Assembly: GCF_044324785.1 (NCBI RefSeq)
Contig: NZ_CP172127.1
Source of the DNA: Escherichia coli
Lineage (GTDB): Bacteria; Pseudomonadota; Gammaproteobacteria; Enterobacterales; Enterobacteriaceae
DNA length: 64,000 nt
Strand: one strand, 5' to 3'
The translations under genes and the position numbers were made by a program. Shown here piece after piece: positions 56,625 to 59,276 of this stretch; position 1 is the stretch's first letter; each line of letters begins with the position of its first letter. The notes under the pieces are model-generated. The model was not told the origin of the DNA, made no database searches, and worked only from the letters and a program-made list of their open reading frames with translations.

Positions 56625-57773
56625 TTAGCGAGCCACTCGAAGGCCGTTTTCAACACCGCGTGAGAACACGACCTGCCAGAGCTGAATATCACGGGCGCGG
56701 AAAGCACCTGCACAGGCATTCAGATAATAGGTAAACATCCGTTTAAAGCGTTCACTGTAGTTATCCGCAATTTCTGGCCATGCGGCGAGGAATCGTTCAT
56801 ACCACGCCATCAACGTAGTATCGTAATCAGCACCGAAGTTATGCCAGTCTTCCATCACAAAGTGGGGTTCGCTGGACTGAGCAATCTGGCGTACAGAGGG
56901 CAGGCAACCGTTCGGGAAAATATATTTATTAATCCAGGGATCAACATTCAGATCGGTTTTTTTCGAACCGATAGTATGGAGCAGGAATATGCCTTCCGGT
57001 TTCAAATTACGATCCACCACCGCAAAATAGGTATCGTAATTTTTCGGTCCGACGTGCTCGAACATCCCCACAGAAACAATACGATCAAACTGGTCGTTCA
57101 GGTCACGATAATCTTGCAGCAAAATGGTGACATCCAGGCCTTCACAGCGTTCCTGAGCCATTTTTTGCTGTTCGGCAGAAATGGTGACGCCCACCACGCT
57201 TACGTCATAGTTAGATGCCATGTAGTGTGCCAGTCCGCCCCAGCCGCAGCCAATATCCAGTACGCGCATCCCTGGTTTTAACTGCAATTTTTCACAAATC
57301 ATTTTGAGCTTCGCCTGCTGGGCAGATTCCAGATTATCGGCATCTTTCCAGTAAGCGCAGGAATATTGCATGAAGGGATCAAGCATGCGGCTGAACAAGT
57401 CATTACCCAAATCGTAATGCTCTTTGCCGACTATCCAGGCACGTTTTTTACTCTGAAGATTGAAGAGACGAGCGCCAGCAATACGCAGCGTGTCTTTGAA
57501 ATGATGGGGGAGTTGGTTCTCGAGACCTGCGCGTAAGACTTTGCTAAAAAACATATCCAGTCGGTCACATTCCCACCAGCCATCCATATAACTTTCGCCT
57601 AACCCCAAAGAGCCTTCCTGCAGAACGCGTTTAAAAAAATCGGGGTTTTTCACACGAATATCCGCCGGGGCAGAACCGTTAATGGCTATACCGGCACGGC
57701 TAAGTAATTCGTTGGCGATACGGTACCAGTTGTCATCCGGTACACTGACTTCTTCTATACACGATGAACTCAT
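56625..57773 (-). CDS. cfa: cyclopropane-fatty-acyl-phospholipid synthase
   Basis: 382-aa ORF with SAM-binding motif VLDIGCGWGG. Confidence 0.95.
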   Translation of the reverse strand: MSSSCIEEVSVPDDNWYRIANELLSRAGIAINGSAPADIRVKNPDFFKRVLQEGSLGLGESYMDGWWECDRLDMFFSKVLRAGLENQLPHHFKDTLRIAGARLFNLQSKKRAWIVGKEHYDLGNDLFSRMLDPFMQYSCAYWKDADNLESAQQAKLKMICEKLQLKPGMRVLDIGCGWGGLAHYMASNYDVSVVGVTISAEQQKMAQERCEGLDVTILLQDYRDLNDQFDRIVSVGMFEHVGPKNYDTYFAVVDRNLKPEGIFLLHTIGSKKTDLNVDPWINKYIFPNGCLPSVRQIAQSSEPHFVMEDWHNFGADYDTTLMAWYERFLAAWPEIADNYSERFKRMFTYYLNACAGAFRARDIQLWQVVFSRGVENGLRVAR

Positions 57774-58064
57774 AGTTTCTCCATCACTGGTCGGTGATCA
57801 GAACCTTAAAACAGCGTAGACGCTTTTTGGGCTTTGTGAGAAATCTCGCAGAAAAAACCGCGAGTCTATAATCCGACGTAGAACAGAGGGAAAGGAGGAA
57901 CCCTTGCCGAAATGACCATCCATAGTGAGTCGGGAACGATCCTGTCCCCGTAAAAACATAATATTTATCGTAGCTTTAACAACTCGAAATTAGTATAGGC
58001 CGCTAATTTCAATCATACAACAAAATTTTGTTAGCAGCCTAAGTATAAGTGTATCGATATAGAT

Positions 58065-59276
58065 TCAGTGTGATTCGCTATGAGCGACTTCGGCATTGCC
58101 ATGATTCTGGCAGTCAACTTCTTCACAACGTTGCATCATGTAACCCAGAGCGACCAGCACTACTGTTGATAACATCACGCTGGTGGTGGTGAGCAATGGC
58201 GTGCTGATACTGATAAGCCAGGAAACTACCAGACTTGCGAGGAAGCACAGACCCAGTTGTAGAGTGTTCTGCAACGCTGCGGCGCGACCAGTTGCATGTG
58301 GGAAGGGACGCAGCGCCTGGGCGACAACAATCGGGTAGATTGCGCCGTTGGCAATCGCCATCACACAGAATGGGATCAGGATTTCGATAAGCGACACATG
58401 GCTAATGAAGCCCGCAGCCCAGGTCGCAATGACGCTGACAGCAAACAGTACCAGCAACCACGGTAATAACTGCTTGCCTTGCCATTTCTGCAGTGCGGCG
58501 CGACAGCCATAACCACCAATCAGAAACGCGATAGTTTGCGGGACATAACTTAAACCAATAACTGCCGGGCTGTAGCCCATTTCACTAAGGATGAACGGTG
58601 AGCCGGTCAGCCATGCAAAAAAACTGGCTGAACAGGCCGCATATATCAGCACGTTGCCGCGATAGGTTTTAGAACGTAGCAGGTCGGTAAAGGTCAGACC
58701 ATCCTGACTATTGTTACGGGCCTTCGTCGTGGGTTTGAGCCAGAAAATAGGCAGAATCAGCACCACGGTAATGGCAAACAGGGTGGCGAATATCGCCTGC
58801 CAGGAAAAATGGACCAGCAGCCAGCTTCCTAACAGAGGAGCCAGTGCCGGAGATAGACCCACCAGCGGCATGATGGTCGCAAAAATACGGTTAACTTTCT
58901 GTGAAGGATAATAATCCGTCACTAACGCTTGCCAGATAACCGCCGCGGCGCAGACACCCACAGCCTGTACAAAACGCAATACCAGCAGCGTAGCGGCGTT
59001 TTCTACCCACAGCATCCCCAGACTACCTAACGCAAAAATTGTCAGGCCGATTAATAATACCGGTTTACGACCATAACGGTCGGAGAGCGGCCCCCACAGA
59101 AGCTGGGCTGCGGCAAAACCGGCAAGGAACAGACTAAGGCTGGCACTGACAGCAGACGCAGGCGTTTGCAGGTCGGCCTGTATGGCGGCGAAAGCAGGCA
59201 GATACATATCGGTTGCCAGAAAACCGAGTACGCTCAAACCCGCCAGCCAGACTAAAAATCTTTTCCCAGGTTGCAT
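58065..59276 (-). CDS. punC: MFS transporter (purine nucleoside uptake PunC/YdhC)
   Basis: 403-aa 12-TMS ORF, Bcr/CflA subfamily. Confidence 0.88.

Follow-up and report, generated by a model that had tools for sequence, protein, structure and literature searches.

The 291 bp that separate punC (ydhC) from cfa raise a simple question: do they carry a long, regulated 5′ leader of cfa, and if so, which of its parts can be placed on individual bases? The window, by which we mean the whole stretch of 64,000 nucleotides that was analysed, is Escherichia coli chromosome in the orientation opposite to that of K-12, and RefSeq annotation of an identical locus and of MG1655 gives the gene order purR, punR, punC, cfa, ribE/ribC, mdtK. 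A sequence-only reading had delimited the gap exactly, at 57774..58064, and had proposed that it holds a long cfa 5′ UTR targeted by several sRNAs, together with a sigma-S promoter. Published transcription starts and landmarks, which fall on matching bases here, support this proposal, and the interval almost certainly corresponds to the characterised E. coli cfa control region (Table 1). The same reading described punC as a ‘convergent-then-divergent’ neighbour, which is wrong: punC and cfa are co-directional, in tandem on the minus strand, with the cfa orthologue directly downstream of the leader on the same strand. Nor is its example of an AT-rich ‘promoter-like’ segment, ttagcagcctaagtataagtgtatcgatatag (58031..58062, plus strand), a cfa promoter, as it lies on the wrong strand and upstream of the P1 hexamers; the last 20 bases of this segment show the lowest conservation anywhere in the spacer (identity 0.30), and only the first 12 (58031..58042) are conserved. 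Since both errors concern gene orientation and an example segment, the interpretation itself is unaffected.

Of 5426 complete E. coli genomes, 5424 contain the spacer at an identity of at least 95%; in the window it matches the K-12 version at 288 of 291 positions, the three differences being an extra A at 58064, C for T at 58051 and G for A at 57917. Throughout, −n denotes position 57773 + n, counted relative to the cfa ATG, and +n denotes position 57986 − n, counted relative to the distal transcription start. In this numbering all the published landmarks land on the right bases of the window: G−135/G78 is 57908, G79 is 57907 and C80 is 57906. The register landmarks G78, G79 and C80, the CU tract and the stem-loop come from Farley et al. 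2025 (PMC12691595), and G78/G79/C80 and the CU tract served as a cross-check of the distal start. Judged by their bases, all elements of the published cfa model are intact in the window. In this sequence the window is probably identical to the published cfa constructs, and from its near identity to K-12 we infer that regulation by sRNAs, Rho and RNase E would operate in this strain as well.

Table 1. Features of the punC–cfa region of the window, in order of position
Feature	Position	Strand	Basis or remark
cfa CDS (cyclopropane fatty acyl phospholipid synthase, 382 aa)	56625..57773	−	ORF list; RefSeq annotation of an identical locus and of K-12
punC–cfa intergenic region, 291 bp	57774..58064	−	ORF list, sequence
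Long 5′ UTR, 212 nt	57774..57985	−	published start mapped onto the sequence
Small conserved hairpin AUCAC-N6-GUGAU	57783..57798	−	just 5′ of the Shine-Dalgarno GGAG (57782..57779)
TSS2, short isoform, A at −34	57807	−	PMC6755755
P2 (sigma-S) putative −10 element CTACGCT, including the −13 C	57813..57819	−	read from the sequence
Leader hairpin 3, +122..+141, CUCGCGG-UUUUUU-CUGCGAG	57845..57864	−	fold
Overlapping RydC (57883..57871) and ArrS (57878..57867) pairing sites	57867..57883	−	duplexes, published mutation
RNase E site GG↓AUUAU, cut between 57873 and 57872	57868..57874	−	primer extension (PMC6755755)
CU-rich tract, +86..+101, UUCCUCCUUUCCCUCU, core of the Rho utilisation site	57885..57900	−	run of 16 pyrimidines
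Stem-loop, +78..+97, sequesters the CU tract	57889..57908	−	PMC12691595
CpxQ pairing site	57900..57920	−	validated core GGCAAGGG at 57908..57901
Leader hairpin 1, +36..+55, CGGGGAC-AGGAUC-GUUCCCG	57931..57950	−	MFE and centroid folds
TSS1, long isoform, G at −212	57985	−	published 212-nt UTR (PMC6755755)
P1 (sigma-70) putative −10 hexamer TATACT	57992..57997	−	read from the sequence; published start 7 nt downstream
P1 (sigma-70) putative −35 hexamer TTGTAT	58015..58020	−	read from the sequence; 17-bp spacer to the −10
Palindromic box, minus TTAGGCTGCTAA, plus TTAGCAGCCTAA	58031..58042		10 bp upstream of the P1 −35
punC (ydhC) CDS, gene upstream of cfa	58065..59276	−	ORF list; RefSeq annotation

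The promoter hexamers in Table 1 are our own assignments and therefore putative. The −35 of P1 reads TTGAAT in most other genera, its TTG being invariant. A consensus scan of the spacer found no sigma-70 promoter, a result that is uninformative because the P1 −35 matches just three of the six consensus bases; the corresponding scan for an intrinsic terminator after punC found none in the spacer. The block around P2, GCGTCTACGCT, is almost invariant (0.94 conserved across 27 other Enterobacteriaceae loci), and we take CTACGCT (57819..57813) to fit the sigma-S −10 consensus with its −13 C. Abutting and overlapping the P1 −35 is a perfect 14-bp AT-rich palindrome, AACAAAATTTTGTT (58020..58033), of which the T-run alone is conserved in other genera; we presume a resemblance to an UP element. 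For the starts themselves we rely on primer extension, in which both are visible, the sigma-70 start giving a 212-nt and the sigma-S start a 34-nt UTR (Bianco et al. 2019, PMC6755755). A single start close to the ATG, which the sequence-only reading had named as the observation that would overturn its view, is contradicted by this mapping of two starts, and the range in which it had suggested looking for sRNA pairing, 57774..57990, agrees with the actual extent of the 212-nt leader, 57774..57985.

A degenerate pattern derived from the cfa CDS was used to collect 120 loci, with one genome per species, and 27 other Enterobacteriaceae loci were aligned, identity being scored against the E. coli base. 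In some genomes, those of Serratia bockelmannii, Hafnia paralvei and Pseudocitrobacter (loci L038, L056/L057, L069/L070 and L081), the pattern also caught an additional cfa paralogue, which is divergent and differs at its N-terminus. The punC–cfa order is kept, with a similar spacer, in 27 of 27 aligned loci. Identity to E. coli across these loci was 0.98 for the P1 −10, 0.80 for the P1 −35, 0.83 for the CpxQ site, 0.84 for the RydC/ArrS sites, 0.84 for the short UTR and, on average, 0.74 for the long leader; the values for comparison are 0.56 for the third positions of cfa codons 1 to 58 and 0.30 for the 22 bp that follow the stop codon of punC. The functional blocks are far more conserved across genera than neutral sites. 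A run of at least 12 pyrimidines at the position of the CU tract and the RydC site motif CTAC[AG]TCGGA at −107..−111 were each found in most of the Enterobacteriaceae loci examined. The RydC motif (about −108) and the CU tract (about −125) are confined to Enterobacteriaceae proper, and neither precedes cfa in the loci from Yersinia, Serratia, Erwinia, Pectobacterium, Hafnia and Xenorhabdus.

We examined sRNA pairing with the sequences of rydC, cpxQ and arrS from MG1655, folding the first 22 nt of each against 30-nt windows of 58064..57700. Folding of full-length sRNA–target duplexes had given unrealistic structures with very long loops and was replaced by these 22-nt seeds. For all three sRNAs the published sites rank first, which bears out the pairing that had been suggested for RydC, ArrS and CpxQ, although the energies alone are not significant against shuffles. 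The best RydC duplex is at 57883..57871 (−110..−98; −17.7 kcal/mol, with 24 of 200 shuffled targets as good), that of CpxQ at 57920..57900 (−147..−127; −17.8 kcal/mol, 8 of 200) and that of ArrS at 57889..57867 (−116..−94; −14.0 kcal/mol, 12 of 200). Since these energies are weak relative to shuffles, pairing prediction alone would not establish the sites; they are established by published compensatory mutations and footprints (PMC6755755). For CpxQ the reported evidence is the compensatory pair G135C/C11G and a footprint, and for the RydC/ArrS region a compensatory mutation at G−101 (57874) (PMC6755755). In our best CpxQ duplex, G−135 (57908) pairs with C11 of CpxQ, as in the published pair. 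In the computed RydC duplex, C4 pairs with 57873 (−100) and C5 with 57874 (−101), where the paper names G101 as the partner of C4, so that the RydC register carries a one-base numbering ambiguity with respect to PMC6755755. The complementarity to the RydC seed covers the RNase E site, and the ArrS site overlaps it. As to Rho, CpxQ is reported to open the stem-loop at +78..+97, and C-to-G substitutions in the CU tract to abolish Rho dependence (PMC12691595).

One of the three differences from K-12 lies within the CpxQ site. Position 57917 (−144, or +69 of the long leader) is G here and A in K-12, G being the common base in other genera. In our predictions this G adds a second helix to the CpxQ duplex (−23.6 versus −17.9 kcal/mol), and repression by CpxQ might be stronger in this strain than in K-12.

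The leader also holds structure that the alignment allows us to assess. In hairpin 1, 6 of the 7 pairs have changed on both sides, and pairing is kept in 90.8% of cells, a strong compensatory covariation. A published 3′ end lies at +59, just after this hairpin (PMC12691595), and the available text of the published cfa leader work assigns it no role. Hairpin 3 (92.9% of cells paired, both-side changes at 3 of 7 pairs) falls within the region up to +138 that truncation data show to be needed for Rho-dependent regulation (PMC12691595). The small hairpin before the Shine-Dalgarno sequence is paired in 97.9% of cells; its pairs hardly vary, so this figure is no evidence of structure. Imposed on the alignment in its published E. 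coli register, the CU stem has two failing pairs and 69.5% of cells paired; because the other genera have one U fewer there, C80 is bulged in them rather than mismatched. When sequences are folded individually, an equivalent CU stem-loop forms in all 26 from which the segment was obtained, that of the window included; in Shimwellia the stem is weaker and displaced. Taken together, the four leader helices score better for pairing and covariation than any of the 500 column shuffles or the slid controls. Folding of the whole leader, in comparison with shuffles, revealed no unusual stability (z = −0.43), and Rfam covariance models at E-values up to 1 gave no family that matches the leader; the sole hit is a chance one inside the cfa CDS (E = 0.59, with 15 bits where the gathering score is 80).

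These data bear on other ways of reading the spacer. It could belong for the most part to the 3′ end of the punC mRNA, with cfa expressed by read-through and from one proximal promoter, and so have no dedicated leader. The tandem arrangement of the two genes, their conserved order and the lack of a detectable intrinsic terminator after punC speak in favour of such read-through. Primer extension, however, gives discrete starts at −212 and −34 (PMC6755755), and TATACT at the −10 and TTG in the −35 show practically no variation, in contrast to the 22 bp that follow the punC stop, which are conserved at 0.30. We therefore regard a spacer without a dedicated leader as very unlikely; as a minor contribution, read-through from punC is plausible because no terminator was seen, and it would not replace the mapped starts.

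Control by translation of an upstream peptide would have its substrate in an ATG-initiated ORF of 53 codons (57959..57798, minus strand; 53 aa) that lies wholly within the long leader. Its ATG, however, is poorly conserved across loci and is not preceded by a Shine-Dalgarno sequence at 57959, E. albertii and Escherichia sp. ESNIH1 alone have a comparable ORF starting from the equivalent ATG, and in 12 loci the leader contains no ORF of at least 20 codons; we give next to no credence to a regulatory leader peptide. As a candidate gene, the ORF at 57798..57959 was likewise set aside: neither start nor frame is conserved outside Escherichia, and it is probably not a gene. That the leader is instead a riboswitch sensing a metabolite or an ion, and not a platform for sRNAs and Rho, would suit its length, its conservation and its conserved hairpins, but this reading is hard to reconcile with the absence of any Rfam match even at E-values up to 1, with a global fold no better than those of shuffles and with the fact that conservation is highest in the single-stranded blocks where the sRNAs pair. 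Published genetic data, moreover, already account for the regulation (PMC6755755, PMC12691595), and we consider a riboswitch extremely improbable.

The reading that we prefer, a long cfa leader controlled by sRNAs and Rho, can be laid out on the coordinates of the window as follows. P1, a constitutive sigma-70 promoter, would start transcription at 57985 and provide the long isoform with its 212-nt leader throughout growth, and P2, the sigma-S promoter inside that leader, would start at 57807 and provide an unregulated 34-nt leader in stationary phase, so that control after initiation would act on the long leader only. Rho would load on the CU tract (57900..57885) and the sequence downstream of it, to about +138, and cause premature termination, with the stem-loop at 57908..57889 partly hiding the tract and limiting loading. 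Pairing of CpxQ with the 5′ arm of the stem would open it, increase termination and repress cfa. Pairing of RydC or ArrS at 57883..57867 would keep Rho from gaining access, mask the RNase E site and increase the expression of cfa, an effect that would help acid survival. The promoter, sRNA, Rho and RNase E steps of this model have been demonstrated in published work (PMC6755755, PMC12691595).

Upstream of P1, the alignment points to one further element. The palindromic box at 58031..58042, centred at about −51.5 from TSS1, has the form TTAG-N4-CTAA, usually TTAG-N3-GCTAA, and 27 of the 28 aligned Enterobacteriaceae sequences have it at a distance of 8 to 10 bp upstream from the −35; its TTAG and GCTAA are nearly invariant in the 28 sequences, and its flanks and centre vary. 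Six Erwiniaceae loci share the box, there at positions from −258 to −310. The operators of DeoR, RcsB and GadE and the LysR-type T-N11-A motif would probably fit it less well than that of SlyA. Against the SlyA consensus, TTAGCAAGCTAA (PMC5797941), the box matches at 10 of 12 positions. A match of 12 of 12, on the opposite strand, is reached by the orthologous boxes of Cedecea, MAG_CTSoil, a Pluralibacter MAG and three loci labelled Enterobacter sp., and these beat every E. coli site listed in PMC5797941 except that of the slyA promoter. A match of this quality is no rarer than chance, with 4 sites of at most two mismatches in the 64 kb against 4.85 expected, so that the support for an operator comes from conservation and not from the match.

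We accordingly describe the box as a conserved candidate operator that resembles SlyA/MarR-type sites, with its function and its partner put forward as suggestions. It is possible, though on present evidence doubtful, that the box serves as a previously undescribed operator, at which SlyA or a different regulator of the MarR family exerts direct control over transcription of the long cfa isoform. The available text of PMC5797941 does not list cfa as a SlyA-responsive gene, and our literature search turned up no paper that connects cfa with SlyA or with PunR; the observation of a conserved box upstream of P1 may be new. If the operator were genuine, a promoter regarded as constitutive would receive a further input at the level of transcription, which might respond to salicylate or other aromatic acids, and current models of cfa control would lack a transcription-factor input, which could be of modest importance.

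The cfa leader itself is already known and is fully explained. Its recognition in this window adds nothing new: it confirms the annotation and supplies exact coordinates. Its wider interest is as a model for several sRNAs acting through one long 5′ UTR by way of Rho access and RNase E cleavage, and such sRNA control tunes membrane cyclopropanation and acid resistance.

Other sRNA-controlled Rho attenuators occur in long enterobacterial leaders, the rpoS leader being an example, and as in that leader, a long 5′ UTR is the place where Hfq-dependent sRNAs change the access of Rho and so control elongation. Unlike attenuators of the rpoS type, the cfa leader has one sRNA, CpxQ, raising termination by opening a stem and other sRNAs lowering it. 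Like the SlyA operator of the slyA promoter (PMC5797941), the palindromic box contains the two outer half-sites; it agrees with that operator at 10 of 12 bases, and differs from it in being a predicted site. The closest counterpart of the region as a whole is the cfa region of E. coli K-12 and Salmonella (the promoters of Wang and Cronan; PMC6755755, PMC12691595), which is the same locus: the window differs from K-12 at 58064, 58051 and 57917, and the promoters, the sRNA sites, the CU tract, the stem-loop and the RNase E site are here at their published positions.
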